Below are positions 3,239 through 47,217 of a stretch of 64,000 nucleotides of DNA, piece after piece. A program made the translations under genes and the position numbers. Every line of letters begins with the position of its first letter. Position 1 is the first letter of the stretch. Source of the stretch: an uncultured Candidatus Saccharibacteria bacterium. Lineage in GTDB: Bacteria > Patescibacteriota > Minisyncoccia > Phycocordibacterales > DSPV01. The DNA lies in NCBI GenBank assembly GCA_964574355.1, contig CAZNMD010000001.1, positions 26,180 through 90,179 of the forward strand, written 5' to 3'. The notes beneath the pieces were generated by a model that searched no databases, was not told the DNA's origin, and saw nothing but the letters and a program-made list of their open reading frames with translations.

Positions 3239-4294
3239 ATGGCAAAAAATTATTACGAGATATTAGGCGTTAAAAAAGACGCCTCAAAAGAGGAGATAAA
3301 AAAGGCCTTTAGAACATTGGCTCATAAATACCATCCTGACAAAAGTGGAGGAGATGAGGCAAAGTTTAAAGAGGCCTCTGAAGCCTACGCCGTACTCTCA
3401 GACGATACAAAACGTGGTCAATATGACCAGTACGGTAGTGCCATGCCTGGAGGAGGGGGAGGAAATCCTTTTGAGGGTTTTGACTTCTCAGGTTTCGGAG
3501 GAGGTGCTCCTTTTAACGTAGATTTTGGTGACATTTTTGGAGATTTCTTTGGTGGGGGAGGTCATCGTGTAAAACGAGGTCAAGATATCACCGTTGACCT
3601 TGAGCTCTCATTTGCAGAATCTATTTTCGGAGTTGAAAGAGTTATTCGGATTAGAAAAGGAACATCTTGCGACACATGTAGTGGAACTGGTGCTAAATCT
3701 GGTTCAAGTGAAATAACGTGTACTGTTTGTGGAGGACAAGGACAAGTGCGAGAATCAAAACGGTCTATACTTGGATCATTTTCAACCGTGCGTCAGTGTT
3801 TTGAGTGTCACGGTCGTGGAAAAGTTCCAAAGGAAAAATGTGATACCTGCAAAGGGGCAGGTATCACTCGACGCGAAGTCGAAATTACCATTGCCATACC
3901 AGCGGGAATTAATCACGGAGAAGCTGTTCGTCTTTCCGGTCTAGGAGAAGCTATTCCTGACGGAGAACCGGGAGATTTATTTGCTCGTATCCATGTAAAA
4001 TCACATCCAACTCTTAAAAAAGTTGGTGACAACTTAGTTACTGATATTTCAATAAAATTAACAACAGCCCTACTGGGAGGTAACTATCCCCTTAAAACAC
4101 TTGATGGGGATATTACAGTCACTATTCCGGCAGGAGTTGTTCACTCGGAGGTACTTCGAATTAAAGGGAAAGGTGTACCAACCACAAAAGGTAAACGGGG
4201 TGACCTTCTTATAAAAATTTCAATTGATTTACCAAAACGTTTATCAAAATCAGCGGCAAAACTTGTAGAAGAACTTAAAAACGAGGGCTTGTAG
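3239..4294 (+). CDS. dnaJ: Chaperone DnaJ
   Basis: J-domain with HPD (YHPDK), a G/F-rich linker, and four CxxCxGxG zinc-finger repeats. Confidence 0.95.
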
Positions 4295-4308
4295 ACACTT
4301 TGTTGTTT

Positions 4309-4342
4309 TTGATGAATGGGTAGGGTACCTGTATAATACAGG
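4309..4342 (+). promoter_or_regulatory. Promoter TTGATG-N17-TATAAT embedded in the 15-bp palindrome CCTGTATAATACAGG
   Basis: -35 at 4309-4314, -10 at 4332-4337, perfect palindrome at 4328-4342, immediately upstream of ATG 4350. Confidence 0.4.
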
Positions 4343-4349
4343 CACTACC

Positions 4350-5099
4350 ATGTTCTCTGATTATGTGCTCTCGCCACTCATCCTTCAATGGCTGATTTGG
4401 CCTGTTGTACGCCCTGCATTTTGGTTTTTTGGACGATTTCAAGTCCGAGGATTAGAGAACTTAAAGAATCTTCCTCCTGGGGTTATCTTTGCTAGTAATC
4501 ATACCGGCGAACTCGACGCCATACTCATTCCGGCAGCTCTGCCGTTTTTTTCAAGATTTCGACCGTTTTTTTATACTTCCCGAGAGCAATCTTTTTACAA
4601 AACATCAGGATGGCGTCAAGCTTTTTATGGAGGTTCTTTATTTAAACTTCTCGGTGCGTATCCTATTTTGCCTGGTAAACATAATTACGAACTATCACTC
4701 GCTACCCACATTCGAATTGCCAAACTGAAACAAAGCATCATTATTTTTCCAGAAGGCAAAGCTGGGCACAAAGAAATAATGAACGAAGGGAAGGGTGGTG
4801 TTGCCTATATTGCCCATGCTACCAACAAACCAATTGTCCCTATTGCGATTTACGGAACGTACGATTTGAGAAAGAAAGAATTTTACGGAAGAAAAAAACA
4901 ACTTGTTCTTTCTTTTGGAGCACCTATATACTCACAAGAACTATTTTCCGGAAAAACTCCTGTATTAAGCGAAGAACAAAATGACTTTAAAAAAGCATCT
5001 CAAAGTGTAATGGATAAGATAAAAGGTATGTATGATGCAATTTCACTAGAATATAAACAAAAAAATAGCTTGGTAAAAAATGATATCTTACTTTCTTAA
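4350..5099 (+). CDS. 1-acyl-sn-glycerol-3-phosphate acyltransferase family (lysophospholipid acyltransferase)
   Basis: NHTGELD (HX4D acyltransferase motif) and FPEGK motif, with an N-terminal hydrophobic segment. Confidence 0.75.
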   Translation: MFSDYVLSPLILQWLIWPVVRPAFWFFGRFQVRGLENLKNLPPGVIFASNHTGELDAILIPAALPFFSRFRPFFYTSREQSFYKTSGWRQAFYGGSLFKLLGAYPILPGKHNYELSLATHIRIAKLKQSIIIFPEGKAGHKEIMNEGKGGVAYIAHATNKPIVPIAIYGTYDLRKKEFYGRKKQLVLSFGAPIYSQELFSGKTPVLSEEQNDFKKASQSVMDKIKGMYDAISLEYKQKNSLVKNDILLS

Positions 5100-5115
5100 T
5101 TAGTTACTTAGTTTC

Positions 5116-5958
5116 TTAAATTTTCCAAAATCTTTTCTCGGCCTTTACTAGGGCAGAGTGTTTTTTCTTAGGTATTTTTTGGTCGTTATTTTCCGCTCTC
5201 ACATTCCACAGTTTAGCTTTTTGTAATGCCAACAGAAGTAAGGTTTTTATACCATTGGCAAATTCAACACTTTCTACTGTGCACGCAAATTTTTCTCGCG
5301 GAGAAATAAAAGTGGTTTGATTACCATAGACAGCGAGCTCAGAACCAAAGCCACTTTCGGGAATTAACGCGTATTCAATTGAACCCGACGCATTTTTTGT
5401 AATTAGATCACGTATTTGAGAGGTATTATGAGAAAGTATTTTTGTAGAGACGTTTCTTTTGGCTTGTCGTTCGCGCACGGTTGAAATATAATTCGGCATC
5501 TCTTTTATAAGTTCATTTTCAGTGGCATATGAAAAAATGGGCTCTTTTGATAAAAGCATGTTTTCATAAGCAGTCTTAATACCGGCAATTCCTTCAAAAA
5601 ATTTAATGTTCGGTTTTGTTGAATCTTTACTTTTTTCTATCGTTTCTAATTCAGAAAGCATTTCGCGTCCAAGTTTTGCGAGTTCAGCATGCTCTCTAGC
5701 TGAATCTTCGGCTTTTTGAACTAACCTGTCGGGAGAAGCGGGGGAATAACTACGAACTCCATCACGAATTTCAATCGCAGCTAAACCTTTTTTTGTAAGT
5801 GATTCAAGAACAACGTATGCCGTACTCCTGTTTACTCCCGATTTTTTTGCAATGTCACTTGCGGGAACGGTTCCAAGATGAAGAAGCGCTAAATATATAT
5901 CAGCCTCTTTTTCTGACAGGCCAAACCTTTGAAGTTTTTGTATAGTTTCTGTGGCCAT
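5116..5958 (-). CDS. TrmB-family HTH transcriptional regulator
   Basis: N-terminal winged HTH typical of TrmB (…EADIYLALLHLGTVPASDIAKKSGVNRSTAYVVLESL…) followed by a C-terminal TrmB-like domain. Confidence 0.75.
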   Translation of the reverse strand: MATETIQKLQRFGLSEKEADIYLALLHLGTVPASDIAKKSGVNRSTAYVVLESLTKKGLAAIEIRDGVRSYSPASPDRLVQKAEDSAREHAELAKLGREMLSELETIEKSKDSTKPNIKFFEGIAGIKTAYENMLLSKEPIFSYATENELIKEMPNYISTVRERQAKRNVSTKILSHNTSQIRDLITKNASGSIEYALIPESGFGSELAVYGNQTTFISPREKFACTVESVEFANGIKTLLLLALQKAKLWNVRAENNDQKIPKKKHSALVKAEKRFWKI

Positions 5959-6020
5959 AGATTAAGGTTTTAACATATGATCTTTGCGCGTAAATGATTT
6001 TAGTGTTGTTATATACTACC

Positions 6021-6081
6021 AACAATTGTTTACAAATGCAAGTTTATACTTCATATTGTTGTTACTCTTTGACAACAATAT
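6021..6081. promoter_or_regulatory. Operator-like palindromes in the divergent trmB / 6189 promoter region
   Basis: Perfect 10-bp palindrome AACAATTGTT (6021-6030). Inverted repeat ATATTGTTGT-N9-ACAACAATAT (6053-6081) overlaps a TTGACA -35 (6068-6073). Confidence 0.4.
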
Positions 6082-6188
6082 GAACATAACCGTAAAATTT
6101 ACTACGGAACCGACTTTTCGCTTCGCGATCTGGTCGTTAGTTCTTCAAAACAAAATGGTCTGAAAAGACCATAGTTGGAAGAGTTAGT

Positions 6189-6707
6189 ATGAAAAGATAC
6201 ATCGTTAGTGTTTGTCTGGCCGCAGCCGCTTTGTTTGCGGGGAAGTTGGAGGCGAGTGCGCAAACTTGGCATCAGCTGACTCAAAGTCAGCGAAACACGC
6301 TAATATTGGCGCAGGGCAATGTCGATAATGGAAAGATGACAAGTTATACCTGCAAGACATGGGTTCAGTTGAGGGTTATCCCCATGATTTCTGGTGGCGC
6401 AGTGACTATTCCACAAAATCGAAATAACTACAGTTGGTTTCCGGCGCCATATGTCTATGCACACCAGCAACCATTCCGTATTGAATGGTCCAGTCCTGGA
6501 CAGATTGTCCAGATGCAGGTGCCAAATAGAACCACAGGCATACTCGGTCCTCATACTGCAATTATCGCCTCATTTACGAGTTCAGAAGTAATACTTCTTG
6601 ACTGTAACTGGTACGGGGATGGCAAAGTTCAGTACCATCCTGTCGCTTACAATGACTTTTACAGGTGGGTTCAGAATTACAACTATACGGTGTACACCAT
6701 TCAGTAG
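6189..6707 (+). CDS. Hypothetical secreted protein (signal peptide)
   Basis: N-terminal MKRYIVSVCLAAAALFAGKLEASA looks like a signal peptide. An RBS GGAAGAG lies 8 nt upstream. No domain recognised. Confidence 0.55.
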   Translation: MKRYIVSVCLAAAALFAGKLEASAQTWHQLTQSQRNTLILAQGNVDNGKMTSYTCKTWVQLRVIPMISGGAVTIPQNRNNYSWFPAPYVYAHQQPFRIEWSSPGQIVQMQVPNRTTGILGPHTAIIASFTSSEVILLDCNWYGDGKVQYHPVAYNDFYRWVQNYNYTVYTIQ

Positions 6708-6762
6708 TGTTAACATAGGATTGTTCGCGATGCGGGCAATCCTAACTTTTATATTTCACTTT

Positions 6763-7677
6763 ATGAATAAAACGCATTTTTTCAAATTAACAGCAATGAG
6801 CATTCTCCTCGTAGGAGGAGCTTTTGTTGTAAAAGATTACTTAAATTATCAACCGGACGATTGGATAACATACGAAGACACAGAGAACGGTTATAGTGTG
6901 AAATATCCACAAGGCCTCGTCGTTCAAAAGATGGGTAATTCTCTTAGAATTGATTCTCCAGACTATACAGTTTCCAGTAGCTCAATATTGATCTCATTCG
7001 TATGGAAATCCAACATACAAATTCCGGCGACGCATGATACAACAACTAAAAATGAACTTAATCCTTTTCTTAGAGAGGAGCAAATCAAGATCGATGGTAG
7101 GGAAGGGTTTGTCGCCTATAACAACCAAAGAGGTGCCACTTTAAATTTCGAGGACAATATCTCTATGTTTTTTGTTAATACATTAAACATCGATCACGAA
7201 CGAGTGTGGAAAAGTCTTAAGTTTAATAAAGTGCCAGAAAAACAGGATTATACTGTTGTTGCTAATGGAACAAATAAGACAGTGAATAACAAAACGCTCG
7301 GCTTTAAAATTGATGTGCCAAACGAATGGAAGGTGGTTCCTGTTAATAAATTTTCCATGTTCTTTTTTGATGGGGACGGAAACAATCAGAAAATATCTAT
7401 ACCCATATTAACCATTGATGTACGACCTCCCGGCGAAGGTTTCATCCCCAAGAAAGATTTTGTTCCTACGATAGATGAAACAGGAATAAATCTACCAAGC
7501 GAGCACAAAGAAGTAACTATTGATGGAAATCGCGCACTTTATACTCACTATACGGAATTCTTTAGTGATCCAGAAACATGGAATCTAAACCTGTATCGAG
7601 ATGGAAGATTCTATTATATTTCAACAACACAATCTGATTACGAAAAAGTGTGGAATAGTTTCAAATTTCTGAAATAA
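6763..7677 (+). CDS. Hypothetical membrane-anchored/secreted protein
   Basis: ATG at 6763 (MNKTHFFKLTAMSILLVGGAFVV…) gives an N-terminal TM/signal segment. The track ORF starting at 6598 overlaps the upstream gene and is probably too long. Confidence 0.55.
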   Translation: MNKTHFFKLTAMSILLVGGAFVVKDYLNYQPDDWITYEDTENGYSVKYPQGLVVQKMGNSLRIDSPDYTVSSSSILISFVWKSNIQIPATHDTTTKNELNPFLREEQIKIDGREGFVAYNNQRGATLNFEDNISMFFVNTLNIDHERVWKSLKFNKVPEKQDYTVVANGTNKTVNNKTLGFKIDVPNEWKVVPVNKFSMFFFDGDGNNQKISIPILTIDVRPPGEGFIPKKDFVPTIDETGINLPSEHKEVTIDGNRALYTHYTEFFSDPETWNLNLYRDGRFYYISTTQSDYEKVWNSFKFLK

Positions 7678-7769
7678 ATATATTTTGGTAATTAAATTTT
7701 TACCTCTCCCTCATTTTCGCTTTGGACACAAACCATGGTATTGTTCTGGCGATAAGAGTTTAACCTCCA

Positions 7770-9437
7770 ATGGAAATTAATTTTTACGCGATTATTGACT
7801 GGTTAACAGCTGTAATACTCGGAAGTCTTGCCTTTGCTATTTTTCTGGGCAGTAAAAAGCACTCATCCAGAGCTTTTGTTCTAATGATATTTTTTGTGAT
7901 GATTTGGACTCTGAATGCAGGTATTCGTGCCGCGGTAATAGATTCAACGACAGCTTTATATCTGACACGGATAAGCTACTTCTTGGGCACCCTTATTGCG
8001 ACATGCTTTGTAAATTTTTTTATTGCTTATCCGGACGATAAAATATTAGGACGTAAATTAAAAATATTCTTAATCATATGTGAAACAGCTCTTTTTTACG
8101 TAATTGTACTAACAAATTATGTAATATTGAACGCTGAAAAAATTCCTGAAACCTTATTTTGGTCTTGGAATCACGGATCTTTGTGGATGGTTTTTGCTGG
8201 ATATTTTTTTGGTTGCTGGACGGCCGGTCTTGTTGTTCTTTTTAAAAAATACAGAGTATCAACTGAAAACGAAACAAAACATAACCTCAAGTTTATGTTT
8301 TGGGCATTACTAATTGGAATAATTCCACCCTCTTTTTTTAATATAATTCTACCAGCCGCTGGCAGTTATCAGTTTGATTGGCTTGGACCACCAACGGGTT
8401 TGATTTGGATTATTATCATTGGTTATTCAATTGTAAAATATCGCCAAATGAATGTTCGCGTTGTTGCCGCCGAAATTTTTACATTTTCAATAATTACAAT
8501 CTTTTTTCTAAACATTTTTACCGACTTTCAGTTGGGGATCTTAGGGAGAGTTATATTTTTTGTGACATCAATAATTCTTGGATATTTTATTATCAAAGGA
8601 GCCTTAGCAGAAAGAGATCAAAAAGAAACTCTCACATCCTTTAATAAGACCCTAAATGAAAAAGTAGCCGAGCAAACAGTCGAAGTTAAAAGAGCCTATG
8701 AAGTTGAAAAGAAGGCTAATCGAGAATTAAAGCAAGTAGACCAAAATAAAAATGATTTTATTTTGATTACCCAACACCACCTTAGAACTCCGCTCTCACA
8801 AATCAGATGGTATTCTGATTCTATTATAAATGGTTTGTATGGTGATATTTCTGTAGAACTTGGTGAAGTAATTTCTAAAATTGACAAAGCAGCAGAAAAA
8901 CTCACAAAGACATTAAATGATTTTTTAGCTATTACTCAGTTAAAAATTGGAACAAAAGTTTTAAATGTTCAGCCCATAAATCTTAAAGATGTTATCGAGA
9001 CAGTCCTATATGATCTTTCAAGCGAGATAAAAAGAAAGAAAATCACCGTTAGCTTTCCAGCTAATGATAACCATTGGCACCTTGTTTCAGCCGATTCCGA
9101 TAGAATGAAAGATGTTTTTGCAATAATTTTGGATAACGCTATTTTGTACAACCACCAAGAGGGTGGGAAATTGAGGATAAGCACAGAACAAAAAAATGGT
9201 ATTCTGATAGTGAACGTTGCGAACACAGGCATAGGCCTTAGTAAAATCGATAAATTGGGTTTGTTGAAGCAAAGTTTTTATAGGTCAAAAGAAGCGAAAA
9301 AAGTAAATCCGTCTGGTATGGGGGTAGGATTATTGGTAGCTAAAACAATTGTAGAAGCACATCATGGAAGTATTGTACTTGAATCAGATGGGGTAAAGAA
9401 AGAAGTAAAAATTGAAATAAAACTTCCGATAGCGTAG
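7770..9437 (+). CDS. Sensor histidine kinase with N-terminal multi-pass (7TM-like) membrane domain
   Basis: About 8 hydrophobic helices in the first 270 aa, an H-box ITQHHLRTPLSQI, and HATPase_c N/G boxes (…GMGVGLLVAKTIVEAHHGSI…). No receiver domain. Confidence 0.85.
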   Translation: MEINFYAIIDWLTAVILGSLAFAIFLGSKKHSSRAFVLMIFFVMIWTLNAGIRAAVIDSTTALYLTRISYFLGTLIATCFVNFFIAYPDDKILGRKLKIFLIICETALFYVIVLTNYVILNAEKIPETLFWSWNHGSLWMVFAGYFFGCWTAGLVVLFKKYRVSTENETKHNLKFMFWALLIGIIPPSFFNIILPAAGSYQFDWLGPPTGLIWIIIIGYSIVKYRQMNVRVVAAEIFTFSIITIFFLNIFTDFQLGILGRVIFFVTSIILGYFIIKGALAERDQKETLTSFNKTLNEKVAEQTVEVKRAYEVEKKANRELKQVDQNKNDFILITQHHLRTPLSQIRWYSDSIINGLYGDISVELGEVISKIDKAAEKLTKTLNDFLAITQLKIGTKVLNVQPINLKDVIETVLYDLSSEIKRKKITVSFPANDNHWHLVSADSDRMKDVFAIILDNAILYNHQEGGKLRISTEQKNGILIVNVANTGIGLSKIDKLGLLKQSFYRSKEAKKVNPSGMGVGLLVAKTIVEAHHGSIVLESDGVKKEVKIEIKLPIA

Positions 9438-9477
9438 CACTATCCTAAAAATAAATTTAGCTATTCTTTGAACACAA

Positions 9478-10701
9478 ATGCACAACTCAGATATTAAGGG
9501 TGTTCTTTCATTTATTGAAAAGAATATTGAATATCCAGACTTTACTCAAATAACAGGCGCTTCTACCAACCCCGAAATCATTGTTAAAGATCAAAAGAAA
9601 CTGATTTTTTGCTCAAATAACTATTTGGGTATTGCAACTGATCCGCGCACCAAAGAAGTGATGCACCAAGCGGTTGATACCTATGGTATGGGATCAGGCG
9701 GCTCTAGATTAGTCTCTGGAAGTACCGACGTACAAGCTCTGCTAGAGGCTAAAATTGCCTTATTTAAAGGGCAACCGGCGGCAATTACGTTTTCAACAGG
9801 TTATATGGCGAATACCGGTATTATTCCTGCCCTCATGCAGCCTCCGGGTAGTTCAACCTTAAATTACCTTAAGAATTTAACTATTTTGAGAGATAAGGCT
9901 GCAATTATCAGTGATGAGTTAAATCATGCAAGTATTGTTGATGGTATTCGACTTTCAAAAGCTGAAAAGTTTATTTACCCTCACCGTGATATGGAAAAAT
10001 TAGAGCAACTTCTCGATAAGGTTAAAAAATACAAATACAAAATGGTAGTGACTGATGGAGTATTTAGTATGGATGGTGACATCGCACCTCTTCCGGAAAT
10101 AATAAATCTAGCTCGAGCATACGACGCTACCGTTATGGTTGATGATGCACACGCAACAGGAATTATCGGAAAAACAGGTAGAGGGACCTCTGAACATTTT
10201 GAATTAAAAGATGAACCTGATGTGACAATGGGCACATTCACAAAAGTTTTTGGTGGGGTAGGTGGGTATGTGGTTGGCTCTGAAGAGCTAATCAGGTATT
10301 TAAGAGTAACCGCAAGGTCATACATATTTTCTGCACCAATCCCACCTGTCATTGCCGCAGGACTCGTGAAATCAATTGATATTGTTCAAAATGAGCCATC
10401 GTTAAGGCTCCGTTTATGGGAAAATGTTACATATCTGAAAAATTTACTGCTTGAATATGGTTTTAACACTCTTGGCAGCGAAACTCAGATAATGCCGATT
10501 TTTATTGGTGATGAAAAAAAAGCTATCGCTGTTTCGAGGCGGTTACTGGAACTTGGTTTTTATATTGCTTGTGTACGTTGGCCGGCAGTCTCTAAAGGAC
10601 AGAGCCGACTTCGTCTTACCTTAATGGCTCACCATACCAAAAAACAGATTGATTCACTTATTCATGCTCTTGTGCGAGTAAAAAACGAATACTCTTTTTA
10701 A
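9478..10701 (+). CDS. PLP-dependent acyl-CoA:amino-acid C-acyltransferase of the AONS/BioF/Kbl/CqsA family (class II aminotransferase fold)
   Basis: GSGGSRLVSGST motif, PLP-lysine motif GTFTKVFGGVGGYV, and VDDAHATG. Overall it is collinear with 8-amino-7-oxononanoate synthase-like enzymes. Confidence 0.85.
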   Translation: MHNSDIKGVLSFIEKNIEYPDFTQITGASTNPEIIVKDQKKLIFCSNNYLGIATDPRTKEVMHQAVDTYGMGSGGSRLVSGSTDVQALLEAKIALFKGQPAAITFSTGYMANTGIIPALMQPPGSSTLNYLKNLTILRDKAAIISDELNHASIVDGIRLSKAEKFIYPHRDMEKLEQLLDKVKKYKYKMVVTDGVFSMDGDIAPLPEIINLARAYDATVMVDDAHATGIIGKTGRGTSEHFELKDEPDVTMGTFTKVFGGVGGYVVGSEELIRYLRVTARSYIFSAPIPPVIAAGLVKSIDIVQNEPSLRLRLWENVTYLKNLLLEYGFNTLGSETQIMPIFIGDEKKAIAVSRRLLELGFYIACVRWPAVSKGQSRLRLTLMAHHTKKQIDSLIHALVRVKNEYSF

Positions 10702-10706
10702 TCAAC

Positions 10707-11732
10707 ATGAAATACAGTGATCTTTTTAAAAAGTATCTCGCAATAAAAAAAAGTACAGGTGCAGTGTTTTACGATTCACATGTTCACCCGTTTGAAGTAT
10801 TTGGGTTAAAAAAAGAAGGTAAAGAAATAGAATTACCGGTAAACTCATCCACTTTTTCTCCAACTCTTTTAGAAAAACTTAAATTTAATGACGTTTCTTT
10901 ACTTATACTTCAAGGATTATTTCGATTTTTTCCGAAATATATACGAGGAGAAATTCGAAAAAGCTATCGACCATCTGGAGATAAAATATTACAAACATTA
11001 CTTTCGAATGCTGGTATAGACAAAGCAACACTCGTACCCATTTATCCAGAGGCGTCACCCCATGATATTTATAAAGTATTTACTGATAAGACAGCTATAA
11101 GGCTGGGCTCAGTAAATTTTTCATTATCGGAAACAGAACTTATACGAGATCTTGAAAACCAACTAAGTACCTATAAGATTCGAGGAATAAAACTGCATTC
11201 AAATATTCAGTCTTTTTACCCCAATCCAAGCGAGAATGAAGAACTTCTTGCTTTAAAATTACGCGCCACGTACAACTATGCCGAAAAAAACGGACTCTAT
11301 CTCTTATTTCATGGTGGAAGATCGTTTATTCCCGAAAACAGTATTTTTCAAAAAAAAGAATTTGCATTACCTAAACACTTTATTACTGCATTAAAAGAAT
11401 CGTTGAATACAATTAGGGTACCCATTATCATTGCACATTTGGGAGTTTATAACATTCCTAGTCCCCACATAGATGACCTGCGGCCACTTATAGAACATGA
11501 TAATGTGTATTTTGACACCGCAGGTGTAAACCCAAAACATGCTGTCAATTTTTTGAAGTTATATGGCTCAAAACGCTTGATCTTTGGCTCTGATGCTCAA
11601 TATTTTAATTGCAAGCATGCGGTAGTACTGCTTCTTGGAGCACTGAATAAATTTAATCCTAGTGATTTTGAAGAAAACGTCTTAAATGTTTTTAGCACCA
11701 CATATGAACATCTCATTTTAAAGACCAGCTAG
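10707..11732 (+). CDS. Amidohydrolase-2 family (TIM-barrel metal-dependent hydrolase)
   Basis: N-terminal DSHVH metal-binding motif, internal conserved His residues (IKLH, HGG, IIAHLG), and C-terminal FGSDA typical of PF04909-like enzymes. Confidence 0.6.
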   Translation: MKYSDLFKKYLAIKKSTGAVFYDSHVHPFEVFGLKKEGKEIELPVNSSTFSPTLLEKLKFNDVSLLILQGLFRFFPKYIRGEIRKSYRPSGDKILQTLLSNAGIDKATLVPIYPEASPHDIYKVFTDKTAIRLGSVNFSLSETELIRDLENQLSTYKIRGIKLHSNIQSFYPNPSENEELLALKLRATYNYAEKNGLYLLFHGGRSFIPENSIFQKKEFALPKHFITALKESLNTIRVPIIIAHLGVYNIPSPHIDDLRPLIEHDNVYFDTAGVNPKHAVNFLKLYGSKRLIFGSDAQYFNCKHAVVLLLGALNKFNPSDFEENVLNVFSTTYEHLILKTS

Positions 11733-11735
11733 CAT

Positions 11736-13322
11736 ATGCAATATATAATCCTTTTTTTTAGTCTCATAAATTTACTACTGGGTATTATTGTATTAATGCA
11801 TAGTAAACATGAACGAGACAAAGTATCTTTTCTTGCGTTTGCTCTCGTTGCAAGTTTTTGGACTTTTAATAATTTTTTACTCCGACTTAGTCCTGACGTA
11901 GCAACAATTAGAATTTCTTATGGTCTTGGACTTACAGTAGCAACATTCGGACTTATTTGGACATTCTTTTTTCTTAAGAAGAACTTACCGAAACTGGTTA
12001 AATTTGTCATTGTTCCTATTTCGGCACTCTTCTTCTTTATCACTCTCTTTAGCGATACGATCGTCTTAAGTCTCCGATCAGTTGAAACACTTGGGTATGA
12101 GGGTTCATTAGGATCACTTTTTTACCTGTATTCCTTCTATATTTCGCTTGTTTTTCTTTCAATTATTGGTGTTTTGTTTAATGAATATCGAACAACAAAC
12201 GATACCGAAAAGAAAAAACAAGTCGGAACAATTCTCGCAGGAGCTCTATTTTTTACTGCAGTGTCATCAATTGTTAGTTTTGTTATCCCAATCTTTTTTC
12301 AAACGTTACGATTTACAATACTAGACAATTTCAGCTTCTCTATTTTTCTTGGATCAATCGTGTACACAATCCTTAGACACAGATTTTTGGATATAAAAAT
12401 CGCAGTTACTGAAATCTTCACATTTCTCCTTTGGGGACTACTTCTCATGCGCGTTATTTTATGGACAGATCTTAACGATTTTCTTGTTGGTTGTGTAATA
12501 TTAATTTCTAGTGTTATCTTTGGAATCTTTTTAATTAGAAGTGTGCTAAGTGAAATTTCTCAACGAGAACATATTGAAAAACTTGCCGGAGAACTCTCTA
12601 AAGCTAATACGCGACTCAAAGAAATTGATAAACAAAAATCGGAATTCGTCTCCTTTGCCAGCCATCAATTACGCTCACCTCTCACGGCCATAAAGGGTTA
12701 TGCATCAATGATTCTTGAAGGTGATTTTGGTGCCGTTACTGACGGTCTCAAAGACGCCGTCGAGAAAATTTTTGAATCATCAAAAACACTTGCGAATGTG
12801 GTTGATGACTACCTCAATATTTCTCGTATTGAACTTGGAACAATGAAATATAATTTCATACCGCTTGATTTACGAGAGCTTACAGAAAATGTCATTGGCG
12901 AATTAAAACCAAACTTTGAAAAAGCTGGCGTAACGCTTTCTTTTGCTTGCGACACATCACAGACGTATCGAGTAAATGCTGACCCAGATAAACTAAAACA
13001 AGTTATTGCCAACATCATTGATAACTCGATGAAATACTCACCTAAAGGTGCTTCAAAAATTAGTGTTTCGCGAGATGATACTCGAAAAATTGCCCGTTTT
13101 GAGATCAGCGATAACGGAATTGGAATGTCTTCCGTTACACTCGCAAAACTCTTCAACAAATTCACACGAGCTGATAATGCCAATCAGACAAATATTCGTG
13201 GAACCGGTCTTGGCCTCTATGTTGCGAGAGATATTATTGGCGCTCATAAAGGTAAAATTTGGGCAGAATCAGATGGTGAAGGGAAGGGTTCAAAATTTAT
13301 TTTTGAGTTAGCTCTTATATAA
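11736..13322 (+). CDS. Sensor histidine kinase, paralog of 7770-9437 with multi-pass membrane domain
   Basis: About 8 TM helices, a shared AxEIFTF motif, an H-box ASHQLRSPLTAIKGY, and an HATPase_c domain (GTGLGLYVARDII). No receiver domain. Confidence 0.85.
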   Translation: MQYIILFFSLINLLLGIIVLMHSKHERDKVSFLAFALVASFWTFNNFLLRLSPDVATIRISYGLGLTVATFGLIWTFFFLKKNLPKLVKFVIVPISALFFFITLFSDTIVLSLRSVETLGYEGSLGSLFYLYSFYISLVFLSIIGVLFNEYRTTNDTEKKKQVGTILAGALFFTAVSSIVSFVIPIFFQTLRFTILDNFSFSIFLGSIVYTILRHRFLDIKIAVTEIFTFLLWGLLLMRVILWTDLNDFLVGCVILISSVIFGIFLIRSVLSEISQREHIEKLAGELSKANTRLKEIDKQKSEFVSFASHQLRSPLTAIKGYASMILEGDFGAVTDGLKDAVEKIFESSKTLANVVDDYLNISRIELGTMKYNFIPLDLRELTENVIGELKPNFEKAGVTLSFACDTSQTYRVNADPDKLKQVIANIIDNSMKYSPKGASKISVSRDDTRKIARFEISDNGIGMSSVTLAKLFNKFTRADNANQTNIRGTGLGLYVARDIIGAHKGKIWAESDGEGKGSKFIFELALI

Positions 13323-13324
13323 AT

Positions 13325-13774
13325 ATGCCGAAAGATTTTTCATATGGTGTAATTCCCGTATACAAAGGAGAAGGCGGGGTCGTTTCTGTACTCATTGTTG
13401 CCAAGGGAAAAAAGGATGGGGAAAAATGGTGGGGTTTTCCAAAAGGACACCCAGAATCGACAGATAAAACGATACGAGAAAGCGCCTTACGGGAATTCAA
13501 AGAAGAAACTGGTCTTATTCCTACCTTTTTGGGTGAAAAAGAATACTTTGATCACTACATCATTGAACGTAACGGAGAGTTAAAAGATAAAACGGTCACT
13601 TATTTTGTGGGCATCGTAGACACAACAGAAGTAACCATTGATAAAGAAGAACTTGATGAATACCGGTGGGTACCAAGCAACCTTGTCGATCATTTTCTTA
13701 CTCGAGACTCAACAAAATCTATGTACTACCAAGCAGAACATGAAGTAGAAAATATCGGTATAAAAACCACTTAG
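13325..13774 (+). CDS. NUDIX hydrolase
   Basis: Nudix box GFPKGHPESTDKTIRESALREFKEETGL (GX5EX7REUXEEXGU). Confidence 0.8.
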   Translation: MPKDFSYGVIPVYKGEGGVVSVLIVAKGKKDGEKWWGFPKGHPESTDKTIRESALREFKEETGLIPTFLGEKEYFDHYIIERNGELKDKTVTYFVGIVDTTEVTIDKEELDEYRWVPSNLVDHFLTRDSTKSMYYQAEHEVENIGIKTT

Positions 13775-13776
13775 CC

Positions 13777-15168
13777 TTAGTCTAATTTGCCGTGAAGATA
13801 CGAGGAAATTTCAGAAATTTTTATTCGTTCTTGTTTCATTGAATCACGGTCGCGAATTGTCACACACTCATCTTTTTCAACAGTATCAAAATCAACTACC
13901 ACACAAAAAGGAGTACCTATCTCATCTTGTCGACGATATCGTTTACCAATGTTTCCATTGTCGTCATACATCACTCGACCAAACTCTTTTTTCAATGCTT
14001 TAAAAATAGCTTCAGCTTTCTCAACCAAAACAGGTTTATTACGAAGAAGTGGAGAAACAGCAACTAGTACAGGAGCTACTTTTGGTGAAAAGCGCATAAC
14101 GACACGTTCATCACCTTCTTTTACAACCTCTTTTGTATAAGCACTCGAAAGAACCGCCAGAAGAGTTCTATCTAAACCGAATGAAGGCTCGATACAATGA
14201 GGAATAAACCGTTCCTTGGTATCTTCGTCCAAATAAGACAAATCCATGCCGCTATCGCGTCCGTGGGCGCTTAAATCGTAATCTGTACGATAAGCAAGAC
14301 CATACAACTCTTTGCGACCAAAAGGGAAGTCGAATTCAAAATCAATAGTACGTTTACTATAAAATGCACGGTCAGCATCAGAAATTTCGTTCTCATGAAC
14401 GTTATTTTTTTGTATACCGACATCAGCATTAAACGCATGAACTTCTTTTACAAAATCATTGAACACTCTTTCCCACTCTTTTGGATTTACAAAATATTCA
14501 ATTTCCATCTGCTCAAACTCACGCGATCGAAATGTAAAATCACGTGGAGCAATTTCATTTCGAAAAGCTTTACCAATTTGAGCCAAACCAAAAGGAAGTT
14601 TCGGATGAAGGGAATCCATCACATTTTTGAAATTCACAAACATTCCTTGGGCAGTTTCAGGTCGAAGATACGAAATTGATGTTTCATCTTGCATCGCTCC
14701 AACATGTGTTTTAAACATCATGTTAAATTGACGAACCTCACCAAGCAGATTACCTTCAGGACTTTTAATCCCCTTTTCTTTAATAATTTTTGCCATATCC
14801 TCAAGCTTCATTCCCCGAACATCAATTCCAGCATCTTCAAGAAGGTGGTCTGCGCGATACCGCTTACCAGTTTTCATATCATTAACAAGAGGGTCAGCAA
14901 ACCCACCAACATGTCCTGTTGCTACCCACACCTTCGGATTCATTAAAATAGACGCATCCACGCCGTACATATCGTCACGATCAAGCACAAACCGTTTCCA
15001 CCACAATCGACGTATATTTTCTTTTAAAGAAACACCGAGGGGACCATAATCCCATGTTCCAGCTAAACCACCATAAATTTCAGAGCCTTGAAAAATAAAA
15101 CCTCGACGCTTGCATAATGAAACAAGCTCTTCCATTACCTGATTTTTTTCTTCGGTTTTCTTTGCCAT
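13777..15168 (-). CDS. glyQS: Glycine--tRNA ligase (dimeric GlyQS type)
   Basis: N-terminus …RRGFIFQGSEIYGGLAGTWDYGPLG and class II motifs are those of the dimeric GlyRS. Confidence 0.95.
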   Translation of the reverse strand: MAKKTEEKNQVMEELVSLCKRRGFIFQGSEIYGGLAGTWDYGPLGVSLKENIRRLWWKRFVLDRDDMYGVDASILMNPKVWVATGHVGGFADPLVNDMKTGKRYRADHLLEDAGIDVRGMKLEDMAKIIKEKGIKSPEGNLLGEVRQFNMMFKTHVGAMQDETSISYLRPETAQGMFVNFKNVMDSLHPKLPFGLAQIGKAFRNEIAPRDFTFRSREFEQMEIEYFVNPKEWERVFNDFVKEVHAFNADVGIQKNNVHENEISDADRAFYSKRTIDFEFDFPFGRKELYGLAYRTDYDLSAHGRDSGMDLSYLDEDTKERFIPHCIEPSFGLDRTLLAVLSSAYTKEVVKEGDERVVMRFSPKVAPVLVAVSPLLRNKPVLVEKAEAIFKALKKEFGRVMYDDNGNIGKRYRRQDEIGTPFCVVVDFDTVEKDECVTIRDRDSMKQERIKISEISSYLHGKLD

Positions 15169-15462
15169 ATATCGTGATACGTTATGGCGTAATACTATAT
15201 GAAAATACGTTTTTTGTCCCAGTCCTTTTACAGTCCTTACCTATAAACTTCTCAGACAAAAATCCCAGCACCGAGGTCATACGGGCTCGTGCTTCGCACA
15301 TACCGAAGGATGCGCTATTCGCGCCCGCACTCGCCCTGGGCTGGTACGGGATTAGTATTTGCACTTCGCAGTTTCTGCTTGCAGAGAAACGTGCGAGCAA
15401 ATACTAAAAAAATAAGGCCGCCACCTACTTTGCTCACGCAAAACAAGTATTGGCCCATAAAC

Positions 15463-15720
15463 CTACTCGCCGTTACCTGAAGGAAGATTCCGCATCTTTC
15501 CCAAAAGGCGACGAAGTTCTTCACCATGAAAATCTCTGACAAGGTCACTGCCACCCGGACATGAAACCAAACCGTCTCTGACAGGATCCATGTGACAAGA
15601 CCTTTTCCCAACACAAGAATCTCCTCGTAAACGAAACACCGTGAGGACGTCATTGGTTGGTGGCACAGGTCTGCCGCATTTTGTACAAAGCGGCAAAATA
15701 TAGCCTGGTTCTTTTTGCAT
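15463..15720 (-). CDS. Hypothetical small Cys4 (zinc-ribbon-like) protein; uncertain
   Basis: 85 aa with CTKCGRP…CVGKRSC. An AGGA RBS lies 5 nt upstream of the ATG. It lies in a GC-rich, possibly RNA-structured spacer. Confidence 0.3.
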   Translation of the reverse strand: MQKEPGYILPLCTKCGRPVPPTNDVLTVFRLRGDSCVGKRSCHMDPVRDGLVSCPGGSDLVRDFHGEELRRLLGKMRNLPSGNGE

Positions 15721-15861
15721 AACAATCCTTTTTGTTTAGTTGTTCTGTTCACAATGAGCAGTACGTTTGAACTTTTAAAAGTCCATCCAACTTTACAATA
15801 CTCTTTTGGTCAAAAAGTACAAAGGAAAAGCTGCTTTAACTGAAAGCATATTTTTGATACG

Positions 15862-16821
15862 ATGGAGAGTATGATTCAAAAGAAAATTCTCCTTTCTGGT
15901 GTAAAGCCGACAGGATTGCCACACATCGGCAATTATTTTGGCGCGATGAAACAATTTGTCGATTTGCAAGATGAATACCAGTGTTACTACATGATTGCCG
16001 ACTATCACGCCCTAAACCTCATACAACGCCCAAAAGAAATGCGAGAACTTACTGAAAGTCTTATTCTTGATTATCTCGCCATTGGTCTTGATCCAAAAAA
16101 AGTAATAATTTTTAAGCAATCTGCTGTTTCAGCTCACACAGAATTGGCTTGGATTTTTGACACAATTACCACCATGCCATATTTAATGCGCGCACACGCC
16201 TTTAAAGATGCAGAGGCAAAGGATAAAGAAATTAGTGTTGGAACATTCAACTACCCAATGCTTATGGCCGCCGATATCCTTTTATATGACGCCGATGTTG
16301 TACCCGTAGGACAGGACCAAAAACAGCATATCGAATACACACGCGACACGGCAGAAAAATTCAATCGCCTATTTGGTGAGACGTTTAAATTACCCAATCC
16401 AATTATCTACGAACACGTTGCGACTGTACCTGGAACTGATGGTAAAAAGATGAGTAAAAGTTATGGCAATACGATTCCGTTATTCGCCGATAAAGACGAA
16501 ATCGCAAAACTTGTTATGAGTATCGTGACCGACTCAGCTGCCGGTGTTCCAACAAATGTCTATGCCATCCATTCACTACTTAAAGACAAAGCTTCACTCG
16601 ACGCCCTCTATGAGGAGAAAAAAGGGAAGTATAAAGATCTGAAAGACGCTCTCATCAGTGACCTTGAAACCTTTATTGCACCACTTCGGGCTCGTCGTGC
16701 TGAACTTACAAAAGACAAGACTTATATTCAGGCGGTCCTTTCCGAAGGATCAGCAACTGCTCGTGAAATTACCGAAGCTAAAATGAAAGTGGTTCGTGAA
16801 AAAATTGGAGTAAGCAACTAA
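15862..16821 (+). CDS. trpS: Tryptophan--tRNA ligase
   Basis: Class I motifs GVKPTGLPHIGNYFG (HIGH-like) and KMSKS. Confidence 0.95.
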   Translation: MESMIQKKILLSGVKPTGLPHIGNYFGAMKQFVDLQDEYQCYYMIADYHALNLIQRPKEMRELTESLILDYLAIGLDPKKVIIFKQSAVSAHTELAWIFDTITTMPYLMRAHAFKDAEAKDKEISVGTFNYPMLMAADILLYDADVVPVGQDQKQHIEYTRDTAEKFNRLFGETFKLPNPIIYEHVATVPGTDGKKMSKSYGNTIPLFADKDEIAKLVMSIVTDSAAGVPTNVYAIHSLLKDKASLDALYEEKKGKYKDLKDALISDLETFIAPLRARRAELTKDKTYIQAVLSEGSATAREITEAKMKVVREKIGVSN

Positions 16822-45269: not shown

Positions 45270-45344
45270 GCTTGTATATCAAAACCTAAAATAAAAACCT
45301 CGTGGTAGTGCTACCACGAGGTTTATGTAAAACGACCCACTCCT

Positions 45345-45932
45345 TTACTCCAAACGGACACTCACCGTACGTTTTGTGAGCATCGAAGGACGAACGAGGA
45401 GAATCGTTACGACAATGCTTTCGATCACAAAAAAGGTGATCGGCTGAGCAGCATCTGCAAAGGTCCACCGCGGAATGGCGATGACGGCACAGAAACACGA
45501 CAACCAAAAAAGAGTCCACGCCAACTTGTTTTCCCGAGCTGGATCTTCCCACGCAGATTGAAAAGTTGGAAGCGCACCGATAAACAGAGCAACTTGTGCA
45601 ACTCCGATTCCAAAATTTGCCTCCTTGAAAACCACCCAAAGAACAATGGCAAACGCAGCGCCAACAAGACACAGCTTATCGAGCTTCGTCCAGCCAGGTG
45701 TTCCGTGCATGATCGCGAGTACAACAACAATCCATACTCCGATAACGGCTCCAATAATCTGGCCATTGACCGTACCTTTTGCATACATACCAGCAAACGT
45801 AACAGTATCCAGAACTCCCCAGATAACCCACGAAGCCTTGGCAGGCTTCGTTGTCTTTTGAAGAATGGCAAGAATGTATGGAACGAAAGCAACAAGAACC
45901 AACAAGCCCGCAATGAATGACAGCGTTTTCAC
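45345..45932 (-). CDS. Hypothetical polytopic membrane protein (GC-elevated)
   Basis: 5–6 TM helices, a GTG start with an AAGGAAGAG RBS, no domain recognised. Two alternative-frame ORFs overlap it, a sign of high GC. Confidence 0.55.
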   Translation of the reverse strand: MKTLSFIAGLLVLVAFVPYILAILQKTTKPAKASWVIWGVLDTVTFAGMYAKGTVNGQIIGAVIGVWIVVVLAIMHGTPGWTKLDKLCLVGAAFAIVLWVVFKEANFGIGVAQVALFIGALPTFQSAWEDPARENKLAWTLFWLSCFCAVIAIPRWTFADAAQPITFFVIESIVVTILLVRPSMLTKRTVSVRLE

Positions 45933-46089
45933 TCTCTTCCTTTTTTTGTTTTTTTACGAAGAACGTATGATAAAATAATAACAGTTTAATTTAATACTGT
46001 CAATAAATGTCTTCCTGCACAAACATCTTCAACTAGATTTTTATACCTGAAAGCGGTAAGCTCTACCTATCAACTAAACACTACTATCA

Positions 46090-46905: not shown

Positions 46906-46906
46906 T

Positions 46907-46949: not shown

Positions 46950-46962
46950 TTTAAACCAGATT

Positions 46963-47214: not shown

Positions 47215-47217
47215 TAC

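Follow-up and report, generated by a model that had tools for sequence, protein, structure and literature searches.

An insertion-marked clade of alpha-oxoamine synthases adjoining 7TM histidine kinases: a possible synthase/receptor cassette in CPR bacteria and Omnitrophota

Gene content of the locus

We examined a window of 64 kb (the whole stretch of 64,000 nucleotides) from an uncultured Candidatus Saccharibacteria bacterium, at the start of which the order grpE-dnaK-dnaJ-ACT was found, ACT being a PlsC-type acyltransferase gene. The same synteny was identified in two related loci, L006 and L088. The features identified are as follows.

4350..5099, + strand: ACT, PlsC-type acyltransferase (Pfam Acyltransferase PF01553, 49.3 bits)
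5116..9437: lineage-specific insertion separating the AOS gene from ACT, as judged by synteny with L006 and L088
5116-5958, - strand: TrmB-family regulator, inside the insertion
6189-6707 and about 6730-7677: two hypothetical proteins, inside the insertion
7770..9437, + strand: HK1, divergent paralogous HisKA_7TM histidine kinase, non-hybrid, window-specific (555 aa)
9478..10701, + strand: AOS enzyme, PLP-dependent alpha-oxoamine synthase of the insertion-bearing clade (407 aa)
9838..9897, + strand: clade-specific AOS insertion, aa 121-140, QPPGSSTLNYLKNLTILRDK
10707..11732, + strand: Amidohydro_2 TIM-barrel enzyme of the amidohydrolase superfamily (341 aa)
11736..13322, + strand: HK2, conserved HisKA_7TM kinase partner, intramembrane-sensing type, non-hybrid (528 aa)
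13325..13774, + strand: NUDIX hydrolase (Pfam NUDIX, 63.4 bits)

The original prediction of four co-directional, closely packed genes at 7770-13322 agreed exactly with the ORF coordinates and also with the Pfam domains, the order being HK1, AOS enzyme, Amidohydro_2 enzyme and HK2, all on the + strand with intergenic gaps of 40, 5 and 3 nt. From 9437 to 13774 no terminator-like site separates the genes, and the NUDIX gene, which begins 2 nt past HK2, is probably co-transcribed with the module. It is not a conserved part of it, as no NUDIX orthologue adjoins the module among the other loci, and a NUDIX gene close to AOS in L091 has only the Nudix box in common with that of the window.

The ACT product has the H(X)4D motif as NHTGELD at aa 50 and FPEGK at aa 133. 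In L006 and L088 its homologues immediately precede the AOS gene, the order being ACT-AOS-amidohydrolase-kinase, and in L108 one lies about 1.6 kb 5′ of it; in L087/P0101 and P0084 they are fused to the AOS enzyme. In the window, ACT is split from the AOS gene by the 4.4 kb insertion. ACT is a facultative component of the module. A TrmB-like gene is again found just 5′ of the AOS gene in L100 (94 bits), with a weak match at L101 too, whereas HK1 and the two hypothetical proteins had no counterpart at any other locus. Thus, the bracketing of the enzymes by two kinases, as first described, stands for the window genome and does not extend to its relatives, which carry only the downstream kinase. 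HK1 arrived with the lineage-specific insertion and is not part of the core module, HK2 being the only conserved kinase partner.

HK1 and HK2 are paralogous over their full length (28% identity, E=1e-66). HK1 matched HisKA_7TM with 57.9 bits (cutoff 28.6), HisKA with 26.9 bits, exactly at its cutoff, and HATPase_c with 54.7 bits, and showed 8 or more hydrophobic segments in aa 1-275, an H-box (HHLRTPL) at aa 336 and a G1 box reading NTGIGL instead of DxGxG. The corresponding HK2 scores were 35.9, 57.0 and 86.9 bits, with the H-box SHQLRSPL at aa 309, the N box at aa 429, and the G1 (DNGIGM) and G2 (GTGLGL) boxes at aa 459 and 489. HK2 has no periplasmic or cytoplasmic sensor domain; since the kinases lack any other sensor domain, their input must be membrane-associated. 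Neither has a receiver domain, and, as had been stated before, no response regulator or HPt gene accompanies them: Response_reg and Hpt were absent from the Pfam scan of 49 window ORFs, among them every ORF of at least 200 aa, and no REC-domain ORF was found in the 64 kb by phmmer with CheY, PhoB and Spo0F queries against six-frame ORFs of at least 50 aa.

The Amidohydro_2 enzyme (Pfam 51.8 bits, cutoff 26.4) conserves the metal-site signature HxH...H...H...D shared by enzymes of PF04909, among which are the COG3618 lactonases (4dlf), LigI and the non-oxidative decarboxylases LigW, ACMSD and 2,3-DHBD. It differs from them in that its identity to solved members is no higher than 13-20%, NCBIfam gives no match and its family is tiny, with 8 relatives, all located beside this AOS clade only. 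It is probably a tailoring enzyme.

Placement of the AOS enzyme

The AOS enzyme matched Pfam Aminotran_1_2 with 195 bits, and its subfamily scores in NCBIfam were 423.9 bits for bioF (cutoff 426.45, thus short by 2.5), 413.8 for the Kbl-related model, 403.8 for Kbl, 375.2 for SPT (SPT-CFB, cutoff 640), 316.9 for ALAS and 183.8 for the CqsA equivalog (cutoff 428), with no equivalog cutoff reached. Sphingobacterium SPT (Sphingobacterium multivorum, PDB 3a2b/8guh) was its top solved-structure match with 289.6 bits, next to the broad-specificity AOS of Thermus (PDB 7poa) with 288-289 bits, while the CqsA structures, with about 94 bits, ranked only 46th-48th. The AONS/CqsA-family label given to it earlier is therefore right for the AOS family and wrong for the CqsA type. 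The catalytic residues H150, D222, H225, K256, R377 and R379, the same as in SPT, are present and invariant across the clade.

An insertion of 9-21 residues between the GYMANTG and SDELNHAS motifs was found in 16/16 aligned clade members. It is missing from Thermus AOS/Kbl, from verified CqsA, from Sphingobacterium SPT (which lacks 17-20 residues relative to the module enzyme) and from the other solved AOS structures matching that segment. The N-to-N span was accordingly 30-42 residues in the insertion clade versus 21-23 in canonical enzymes. In a neighbour-joining tree, 124/124 insertion-bearing sequences grouped together with 0 canonical members inside, at a weak bootstrap of 27/100. Judged from these sequences, the AOS enzyme is a member of a separate, insertion-marked AOS clade.

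The original prediction had also likened the locus to cqsA-cqsS and lqsA-lqsS. In both systems, as here, an AOS-family PLP enzyme adjoins a kinase with a multi-helix, membrane-only sensor. In the Cqs and Lqs systems, the kinase perceives a lipophilic product inside the membrane. The two paralogous kinases of the window also recall Legionella, which has a second paralogous receptor, LqsT, besides LqsS (PMC8023197). Despite this fitting architecture, a true Cqs/Lqs alpha-hydroxyketone quorum-sensing member, with orthologous synthase and receptor, is scarcely credible, and membership of the CqsA/CqsS family was rejected. Besides the CqsA scores and the absence of the insertion from CqsA, the AOS enzyme showed only 24% identity to verified V. 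campbellii CqsA. The sensor domain of verified CqsS had no match to HisKA_7TM (PF16927), the domain found in both module kinases, and against the module 7TM profile it gave an hhalign probability of 0.08%, with no detectable homology. As both enzyme and sensor fail the CqsA/CqsS tests, the parallel is architectural or functional at most, and the homology once implied falls away. The module differs further in that its AOS enzyme lies in a different, BioF/Kbl/SPT-like clade, its sensor is HisKA_7TM plus two more helices, its kinase is non-hybrid, LqsR-like and HdeD-like genes are missing, tailoring enzymes (amidohydrolase, acyltransferase) are added, and its hosts are CPR bacteria and Omnitrophota, not Proteobacteria.

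Linkage of the AOS clade to 7TM domains

A HisKA_7TM protein was identified within 6 kb of 23/24 informative non-redundant insertion-clade AOS genes (30 non-redundant genes in total, 23 with such a neighbour and the other 7 on short-flank contigs). On the other hand, only 1/74 canonical-span BioF/Kbl-type AOS loci, each flanked by 2.5 kb or more on either side, had such a neighbour when searched with the module-derived 7TM profile, not with PF16927 itself. With L091/L104, where the 7TM gene was absent within 7 kb downstream, taken as the single informative negative, Fisher's p was about 4e-20, a value which overstates independence since the loci are phylogenetically related.

The linkage was seen in lineages labelled Saccharibacteria, Wildermuthbacteria, WWE3 and Omnitrophota, with AOS identity down to about 41% among 19 AOS-7TM pairs and with at least 5 gene orders; it is therefore not just a matter of recent shared ancestry. 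Across the 19 pairs, AOS and 7TM divergence were correlated (r=0.79, permutation p<=5e-4). Orthologues of the HK2 7TM domain (170-305 bits) lie directly 3′ of AOS-amidohydrolase in L001, L003, L006, L087 and L088, and likewise in L094-L098 and L101. Spacing is tight, with a 3-nt gap in the window, overlaps of 1 nt in L003 as well as L087, and the AOS gene abutting the kinase directly in L089, L152 and L153, which suggests co-translation.

The 7TM domain is joined to HisKA-HATPase, GAF-HATPase or DUF835 outputs, or stands alone; different outputs joined to one domain are usual for a sensory input module. In sister variants a single-domain receiver lies directly beside the kinase, namely the response regulators 3′ of it in L089/L090, L093 and L152, L093 also having a GAF-HD protein and a neighbouring MGDG synthase gene. 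No response regulator was linked to the window's own module variant in any sampled locus.

Could the AOS enzyme be an ordinary BioF or Kbl, sharing an operon with unrelated orphan kinases and with no functional link to them? Its near-threshold bioF score and its Kbl scores of about 404-414 bits would fit, as would the database name of its relatives (8-amino-7-oxononanoate synthase), the C-terminal SRLRLTL, which we take to resemble that of E. coli BioF, and the compactness of CPR genomes, which puts unrelated genes into operons. However, the adjacency is clade-specific, spans phyla with changing gene orders and is not seen at 73/74 canonical loci; the insertion is in no solved BioF, Kbl or SPT structure; and some genomes encode the AOS enzyme as a fusion with an acyltransferase. 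Moreover, BioA/BioB/BioD-type domains were absent from the window ORFs, and neither bio genes nor tdh were found in the window or in the precomputed Pfam tables of the related loci. This explanation is quite improbable, and a BioF role remains unlikely, in line with the original prediction. As the two genes stay adjacent in CPR lineages as well as in Omnitrophota, and specifically in this clade, functional coupling of the AOS enzyme and the 7TM kinase, proposed from the start, is strongly supported by the synteny.

Structural lipid or sensed product

The accessory enzymes change with lineage and include the amidohydrolase, fused PlsC acyltransferase, an ICMT-like methyltransferase, a formyltransferase and acyl-ACP-reductase-like proteins, all of which suit lipid-like or fatty-acyl substrates. 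Sister variants contain two acyl-ACP-reductase/PigE-N-like proteins and an ICMT/PEMT-like membrane methyltransferase.

A serious rival, although a somewhat unlikely one, is a role in membrane-lipid homeostasis, which the original prediction had already offered as its alternative. An SPT-like AOS enzyme would form, from a scavenged acyl thioester, a long-chain amino-ketone base, from which the acyltransferase, amidohydrolase or methyltransferase would make an amino- or sphingo-type structural lipid of the membrane; the 7TM kinase would track membrane composition or lipid level and adjust expression, and the product would be a membrane constituent and no signal. The top structure match to SPT and the 375 bits with SPT-CFB are consistent with this, although that equivalog cutoff was widely missed. 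The PlsC-type acyltransferase, adjacent or fused, would fit a long-chain acyl substrate, and the methyltransferase, the acyl-ACP-reductase-like proteins and the MGDG synthase gene of the sister variants point the same way, but known bacterial ceramide genes were absent beside the module in the Pfam tables of its loci, with no ceramide synthase, reductase, dedicated ACP or acyl-ACP synthetase found. Intramembrane-sensing kinases are commonly sensors of envelope or membrane state, and the module keeps a stable syntenic position amid housekeeping genes (dnaK operon, aminoacyl-tRNA synthetases). Yet the wholesale swapping of tailoring enzymes among lineages and the two tandem synthase-7TM pairs of WWE3 would be unusual for a core structural-lipid pathway, and kinase pairing was found in 1/74 canonical control loci only. 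To our knowledge, neither near-obligate pairing with a kinase of its own nor, as in the window lineage, linkage to an Amidohydro_2 enzyme is a feature of SPT loci.

We tentatively favour a different reading, in which the cassette may be a synthase/receptor pair for a lipophilic aminoketone-derived molecule, Cqs/Lqs-like and independently arisen; beyond AOS-family chemistry and domain content, it is drawn from synteny. The core unit would be the AOS enzyme, the amidohydrolase and HK2, with the PlsC-type acyltransferase as a facultative fourth member. The PLP enzyme would join an amino acid and an acyl thioester into an alpha-aminoketone, the established chemistry of the family; this product would next be altered by the metal-dependent enzyme of amidohydrolase fold and, in loci that have it, by the acyltransferase. 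The lipophilic product would enter the membrane and be detected by the 7TM domain of the co-transcribed HK2, as the conserved clade-specific synteny suggests, upon which HK2 would autophosphorylate at its H-box histidine and phosphorylate a response regulator whose gene lies elsewhere. HK1, a paralogue that may have been gained recently, could serve as a second receptor, as LqsT does alongside LqsS. That tailoring varies while the synthase-receptor core stays fixed is reminiscent of signal diversification.

Some observations weigh against a synthase/receptor pair. CPR bacteria are generally thought to be without fatty-acid synthesis, which bears on the source of the acyl donor. PlsC, the ICMT/PEMT-like enzymes and the L093 MGDG synthase fit a structural-lipid pathway equally well; the window variant has no linked response regulator, and one clade member, L091/L104, has no 7TM gene within 7 kb downstream.

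We found no literature on an AOS/7TM-kinase cassette. The synthase/receptor reading suggests that the ultra-small CPR/Patescibacteria and Omnitrophota possess an undescribed system for making and sensing a lipid-like small molecule of their own.

Organization of the module in the window and in close relatives

The original prediction had placed two multi-transmembrane kinases, here HK1 (upstream) and HK2 (downstream), around a PLP-dependent enzyme of the alpha-oxoamine synthase (AOS) family and an amidohydrolase. All four ORFs were recovered on the forward strand at the coordinates given there, with their domain calls borne out by Pfam, and a NUDIX gene starts 2 nt past HK2.

Genes of the module and the adjoining gene (domains from Pfam)
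7770-9437, + strand: HK1, 555 aa, with HisKA_7TM, HisKA and HATPase_c domains
9478-10701, + strand: AOS enzyme of aminotransferase fold, 407 aa, Aminotran_1_2 (PF00155) at 195 bits
10707-11732, + strand: amidohydrolase, 341 aa, Amidohydro_2 at 51.8 bits
11736-13322, + strand: HK2, 528 aa, with HisKA_7TM, HisKA and HATPase_c domains
13325-13774: NUDIX gene

The gaps between the four genes are 40 nt (HK1 end to AOS start), 5 nt and 3 nt, and the 1035 nt from the AOS stop to the HK2 start hold one intervening gene. No terminator-like hairpin was detected by the terminator scan in the gaps from HK1 through to the NUDIX gene, while promoter-like sites were no commoner than in shuffled sequences, so that the scan does not define operon boundaries. 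The coupling of AOS, amidohydrolase and kinase is tight and operonic. The NUDIX gene was considered as a further member and rejected, since it shows no conservation with the module and shares just the Nudix box with the NUDIX gene of locus L091. A defence system was also rejected, because PADLOC gave only generic HATPase, wHTH and Nudix-level matches of 35 bits or less.

The other genes of the window are of housekeeping type, including a grpE-dnaK-dnaJ operon, eight aminoacyl-tRNA synthetases, cell-wall synthesis genes, DnaB, RecR and MreB. Pfam scans took in 49 ORFs of the window, every ORF of at least 200 aa among them, and detected no bioA, bioB or bioD, no HPt gene and no response regulator; nor was there a receiver-domain ORF anywhere in the 64 kb or a Response_reg domain in HK1 or HK2. 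Thus, on the scope of 64 kb, the kinases are orphans as had been proposed, and the predicted absence of biotin partners holds for the related loci too, as far as their Pfam tables show. At 45286-49890, several overlapping mechanical ORFs and ORFs with no Pfam family (47423-47977 and 48258-48875) adjoin the only tRNA gene of the window (tRNA-Glu-CTC, 49247-49319), and the highest GC content of the window (0.467) is reached at 48-50 kb within the same segment, a short stretch that may be of foreign origin or rich in non-coding sequence.

Both kinase N-domains match HisKA_7TM (PF16927), as suggested earlier, with 57.9 bits for HK1 and 35.9 bits for HK2 against a cutoff of 28.6. The two are paralogues from end to end, the membrane domain being part of the match (28% identity, E=1e-66). 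At least eight hydrophobic segments were found within the first ~275 residues of each, and no sensor domain besides the membrane domain was detected in either; they are therefore of the intramembrane-sensing type. The H-box His and the N, G1 and G2 boxes were located in both. HK2 is a plausible, predicted catalytically active membrane kinase. In HK1, the G1 box (NTGIGL, aa 485-490) has Asn for the conserved Asp of DxGxG and the HisKA score coincides with the Pfam cutoff; weak ATP binding or a bias towards phosphatase activity is possible for HK1. A structure model of the 7TM domain, built from a 4-sequence alignment, was too poor for fold comparison (pLDDT 56, pTM 0.40), and a homologue search with the HK2 7TM domain returned 3 proteins, the word index of that search handling low-complexity transmembrane sequence poorly.

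The closest relatives, with 58-67% AOS identity, include among the matches listed a MAG labelled Candidatus Saccharibacteria. On the basis of one automated MAG name, the source organism is taken to be probably of the CPR/Patescibacteria. In four comparison loci (L001, L003, L006 and L088), the order AOS-amidohydrolase-kinase is the same as in the window, with genes overlapping or abutting, and the kinase is the HK2 orthologue (7TM domain at 170-305 bits). HK1 had no counterpart in any other locus compared; the predicted bracketing by two kinases is therefore true of the window and does not carry over to its relatives. L006 and L088 have the order grpE-dnaK-dnaJ-acyltransferase-AOS-amidohydrolase-kinase, and the window opens with the same grpE-dnaK-dnaJ-acyltransferase. 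The acyltransferase and AOS are adjacent in L006 (7718-9666) and L088 (7285-9221), while in the window they are parted by a 4.4 kb block (5116-9437) that holds a TrmB regulator on the - strand, two family-less hypothetical genes and HK1. Since the synteny of L006 and L088 matches without this block, we regard it as a lineage-specific insertion. In locus L087 (protein P0101, 48% AOS identity), and also in protein P0084, the AOS enzyme carries the PlsC-type acyltransferase as an N-terminal fusion.

A TrmB-family regulator was also observed directly upstream of AOS and on the same strand in locus L100 (45-839, +), with 94 bits to the TrmB of the window (5116-5958, -), and a weaker match lies upstream of AOS in L101 (2-577, +). 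In lineages whose module lacks a linked response regulator, TrmB may repeatedly serve as its local regulator. Of the terminator-like hairpins in the region, the strongest (13 bp stem, 6 GC pairs) is located at 6716-6744, after the ORF at 6189-6707. The mechanical TTG start of the following ORF (6598) overlaps both that gene (6598-6707) and the hairpin, and therefore its true start is probably a downstream ATG near 6730.

A distinct AOS clade and its linkage to 7TM kinases

Scored against the curated NCBIfam models, the AOS enzyme missed every subfamily cutoff. It fell 2.5 bits short for bioF (TIGR00858, 423.9 vs 426.45), and further short for Kbl (413.8 vs 535 for the Kbl-related model, 403.8 vs 460 for NF005394 and 330.5 vs 493 for TIGR01822), ALAS (316.9 vs 338.55) and SPT (375.2 against a cutoff of 640, then 306.3 and 244.9 bits, where SPT equivalog cutoffs are 500-670). 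The enzyme is thus nearest to BioF, Kbl and SPT by sequence and misses the cutoffs of all three, and the clear Kbl or SPT orthology that would have spoken against the original prediction was not seen. No alcohol-dehydrogenase-type tdh neighbour was found in any module locus table. The best matches among solved structures were Sphingobacterium SPT and Thermus AOS/Kbl (about 290 bits). H150 (NHAS), D222 and H225 (DDAHATG) and K256 (TFTK) are identical in all 16 clade members and line up with the corresponding residues of SPT and Thermus AOS, as do R377 and R379, likewise invariant in the clade. With its predicted catalytic Lys, stacking His and Asp/His pair, the enzyme is assigned to the alpha-oxoamine synthase family of fold-type I, and it looks catalytically competent.

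An insertion of ~17-20 residues (aa 121-140, nt 9838-9897) lies between the GYMANTG and SDELNHAS motifs. It is present at the same site in 16/16 aligned relatives from CPR and Omnitrophota and absent from SPT, Thermus AOS and CqsA, and none of the solved AOS structures could be aligned over this segment. In a neighbour-joining tree of 249 non-redundant AOS sequences, calculated with the insertion columns left out, 124 insertion-bearing sequences and 3 with a shorter insertion formed one clade with no canonical (BioF/Kbl-type span) sequence inside. Bootstrap support for this exact split was weak (27/100), and the shared indel is thus a stronger marker of the clade than the tree. In public records, the relatives are named '8-amino-7-oxononanoate synthase' or left with no name.

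For the analysis of gene neighbourhoods, 173 loci were annotated locally with phmmer and hmmsearch on mechanically called ORFs and de-duplicated; 80 were listed matches of a genome scan, 80 came from a metagenome scan and 13 from context look-ups. The genome scan used the full-length alignment and returned mostly canonical BioF/Kbl loci, which were reused as controls; the metagenome scan used a sub-alignment of the clade region. A HisKA_7TM neighbour was found within 6 kb of 23 insertion-bearing AOS genes. The 7 genes without one are all on short-flank contigs, and only L091/L104 among them reaches 7 kb downstream. Of 74 canonical-span AOS genes flanked by 2.5 kb or more on each side, one had a 7TM match (L121, 1.9 kb off); the 7TM profile used on the control loci was derived from the module itself and was not PF16927. 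No such neighbour was found for 37 short-flank canonical genes or for 21 genes whose motif span was unmeasurable, and a histidine-kinase core occurred in the fetched flank of only about six of ~130 non-clade loci. Counting L091/L104 as a single informative negative (23/24 vs 1/74), Fisher's exact test gave p ~4e-20, a value that treats related loci as independent and so exaggerates the significance. Divergence of AOS and of the 7TM domain was correlated over 19 pairs (r=0.79, permutation p<=5e-4).

The pairing of AOS with the kinase is conserved and clade-specific across phyla, and this is the chief new finding of the analysis. It would also be conceivable that the enzyme is a housekeeping BioF or Kbl that happens to stand beside kinases; we consider this improbable, as coincidence is hard to square with clade-specific synteny.

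Accessory genes in the lineage variants

While the AOS-7TM pairing persists in distant lineages, the accessory genes change. The amidohydrolase of the window is rare, with 8 relatives among the 5.8 billion proteins searched, each of which shares its contig with a close AOS homologue wherever contig data are recorded; further copies in the metagenome loci are always between AOS and the kinase. It scores above the gathering threshold of Amidohydro_2 (PF04909) and has the (beta/alpha)8 barrel and the HxH and Asp metal ligands, and is a genuine, intact enzyme of the superfamily. A search of the PDB by sequence returned nothing meaningful, so a fold comparison was needed.

In Wildermuthbacteria, the order is acyltransferase, unknown membrane protein, AOS, kinase and single-domain response regulator, and such regulators adjoin the module in several variants. 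In WWE3 (L092/L112, 3984-11195), AOS is followed by U255, an ICMT-like methyltransferase, a 7TM protein, a second AOS, a formyltransferase and a 7TM kinase. This WWE3 operon contains two AOS-7TM pairs in tandem, of which the first has a 7TM protein (462 aa) with no kinase core; two more short 7TM-like ORFs lie upstream (1003-2429). The Omnitrophota variant has two acyl-ACP-reductase/PigE-N-like proteins, AOS, U255, an ICMT-like protein, a 7TM-GAF kinase, a response regulator and a GAF-HD protein. Two such proteins, paralogues of about 330-360 aa, are located upstream of AOS in L093 (3902-5993) and in L152 (3232-5773) and are homologous to long-chain acyl-ACP reductase and to the N-terminal reductase of PigE (6jzz at E=2e-10; NCBIfam PigE at 80-127 bits). 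Such neighbours imply the handling of fatty-acyl thioesters in these sister variants.

U255 is a conserved soluble protein of ~255 aa that directly follows AOS in the ICMT-containing variant (L092 5212-5976, L093 7227-8000, L102, L103, L106 and L113), the position of the amidohydrolase in the window; no Pfam or NCBIfam family matched it. The protein U237 showed no detectable relation to the 7TM profile.

Two further arrangements were observed. In L008, from the unclassified MAG 'bacterium isolate STD1_36' (6115-15986), AOS is followed by a 7TM protein fused to DUF835 in place of a kinase core and then by a separate large kinase-core ORF, and six REC-domain ORFs flank the region, an unusually dense signalling cluster. 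L091 (869-3158, a relative of Parcubacteria GW2011_GWA2_38_13) and L104 are the sole case in the clade where a long flank downstream of AOS holds no 7TM kinase; there, AOS is followed by a histidine-phosphatase-family gene, a NUDIX gene and a radical-SAM/SPASM/PqqD peptide-maturation cluster.

The lineage-variable accessory enzymes suit fatty-acyl or lipid-like substrates. This bears on the main rival explanation, a structural pathway for amino- or sphingo-type lipids in which the kinase monitors the state of the membrane. The SPT-like similarity of AOS and the PlsC, ICMT and acyl-reductase neighbours speak for such a pathway, which we take to be possible and rather unlikely. Our tentative preference is for a cassette of synthase and receptor that would make and sense a small molecule, because tailoring enzymes are exchanged between lineages while the synthase-receptor core stays the same, because WWE3 has tandem pairs and because the 7TM domain is wired to several outputs. 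In such a make-and-sense cassette, AOS would join an amino acid and an acyl thioester to give an alpha-aminoketone, which would then be tailored; the 7TM domain would detect the product within the membrane, and HK2 would relay the signal to an unlinked response regulator. HK1 would be a second, recently acquired receptor.

Relation to Cqs/Lqs systems and significance

The parallel drawn earlier with cqsA-cqsS and the lqs cluster stands for gene adjacency and fails for homology. As with CqsS/LqsS, the module kinase is encoded beside an AOS-type synthase, and for HK2 this adjacency is kept in the relatives. On the other hand, the AOS enzyme scored 183.8 bits against a cutoff of 428 on the CqsA model (NF005526), with five other AOS subfamily models far above; CqsA structures (2wk8, 2wk7 and 3hqt) were far down the list at only ~94 bits, against ~290 for SPT and Thermus AOS, and the CqsA-family identity was thus dropped. 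As verified cqsS-cqsA reference we used the V. campbellii chromid locus (L174, CqsS at 3480-5552), a separate CqsS sequence serving as bait only. This CqsA is 24% identical to the AOS of the window, and their alignment has a gap of 17 residues where the insertion lies.

The CqsS of this verified locus is hybrid, carrying a receiver domain at its C-terminus, and in Lqs the cluster includes LqsR; HK1 and HK2, unlike these, are non-hybrid and have no REC ORF in the window. The proposed match of the kinase sensors to CqsS was not borne out: its N-terminal sensor had no PF16927 match even at E<=0.1, and hhalign of the module 7TM profile (15 sequences) with CqsS aa 1-208 gave a probability of 0.08%. 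Homology to Cqs/Lqs therefore fails for synthase and receptor alike, which places the module outside that family. True orthology is refuted at the sequence level and we hold it to be highly improbable. By analogy of working principle, CqsA/CqsS and LqsA/LqsS(/LqsT) would be the closest known systems. We rate the combination of an AOS-type synthase with a membrane kinase described here as independently evolved, in new phyla and with new partner enzymes. A full-text literature search, with many subscription papers outside its coverage, returned no account of this AOS clade, of its pairing with HisKA_7TM or of AOS in CPR bacteria; what it did yield was general work on the HisKA_7TM domain, the Cqs/Lqs systems and oral plaque.

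More broadly, and this we put forward as a doubtful possibility, insertion-clade AOS and HisKA_7TM might form a phylum-spanning family of make-and-sense signalling systems in ultra-small, host-dependent bacteria of the CPR/Patescibacteria and Omnitrophota, in which the lipophilic aminoketone derivative would be tailored differently from lineage to lineage (N-acyl, methyl, formyl or hydrolysed) and detected by a membrane receptor kinase devoted to it. If true, this would be the first candidate system for cell-cell or symbiont-host communication in these phyla, and a second, independent origin of AOS-based signalling beside Cqs/Lqs. Should the lipid reading hold instead, organisms regarded as lipid scavengers would, unexpectedly, be making amino-lipids.

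The clade defines a previously unrecognised AOS subfamily, now annotated as BioF, and gives a first functional lead on the ligand class of the widespread, uncharacterised HisKA_7TM sensor domain. CPR bacteria and Omnitrophota combine very small genomes with little regulatory machinery, and most seem to live on other cells or to depend on them. For the sensing of partners or of the own population in such bacteria, a conserved module that links an enzyme forming a small molecule with a receptor kinase of the membrane, and is retained despite genome reduction, is a concrete, testable candidate.
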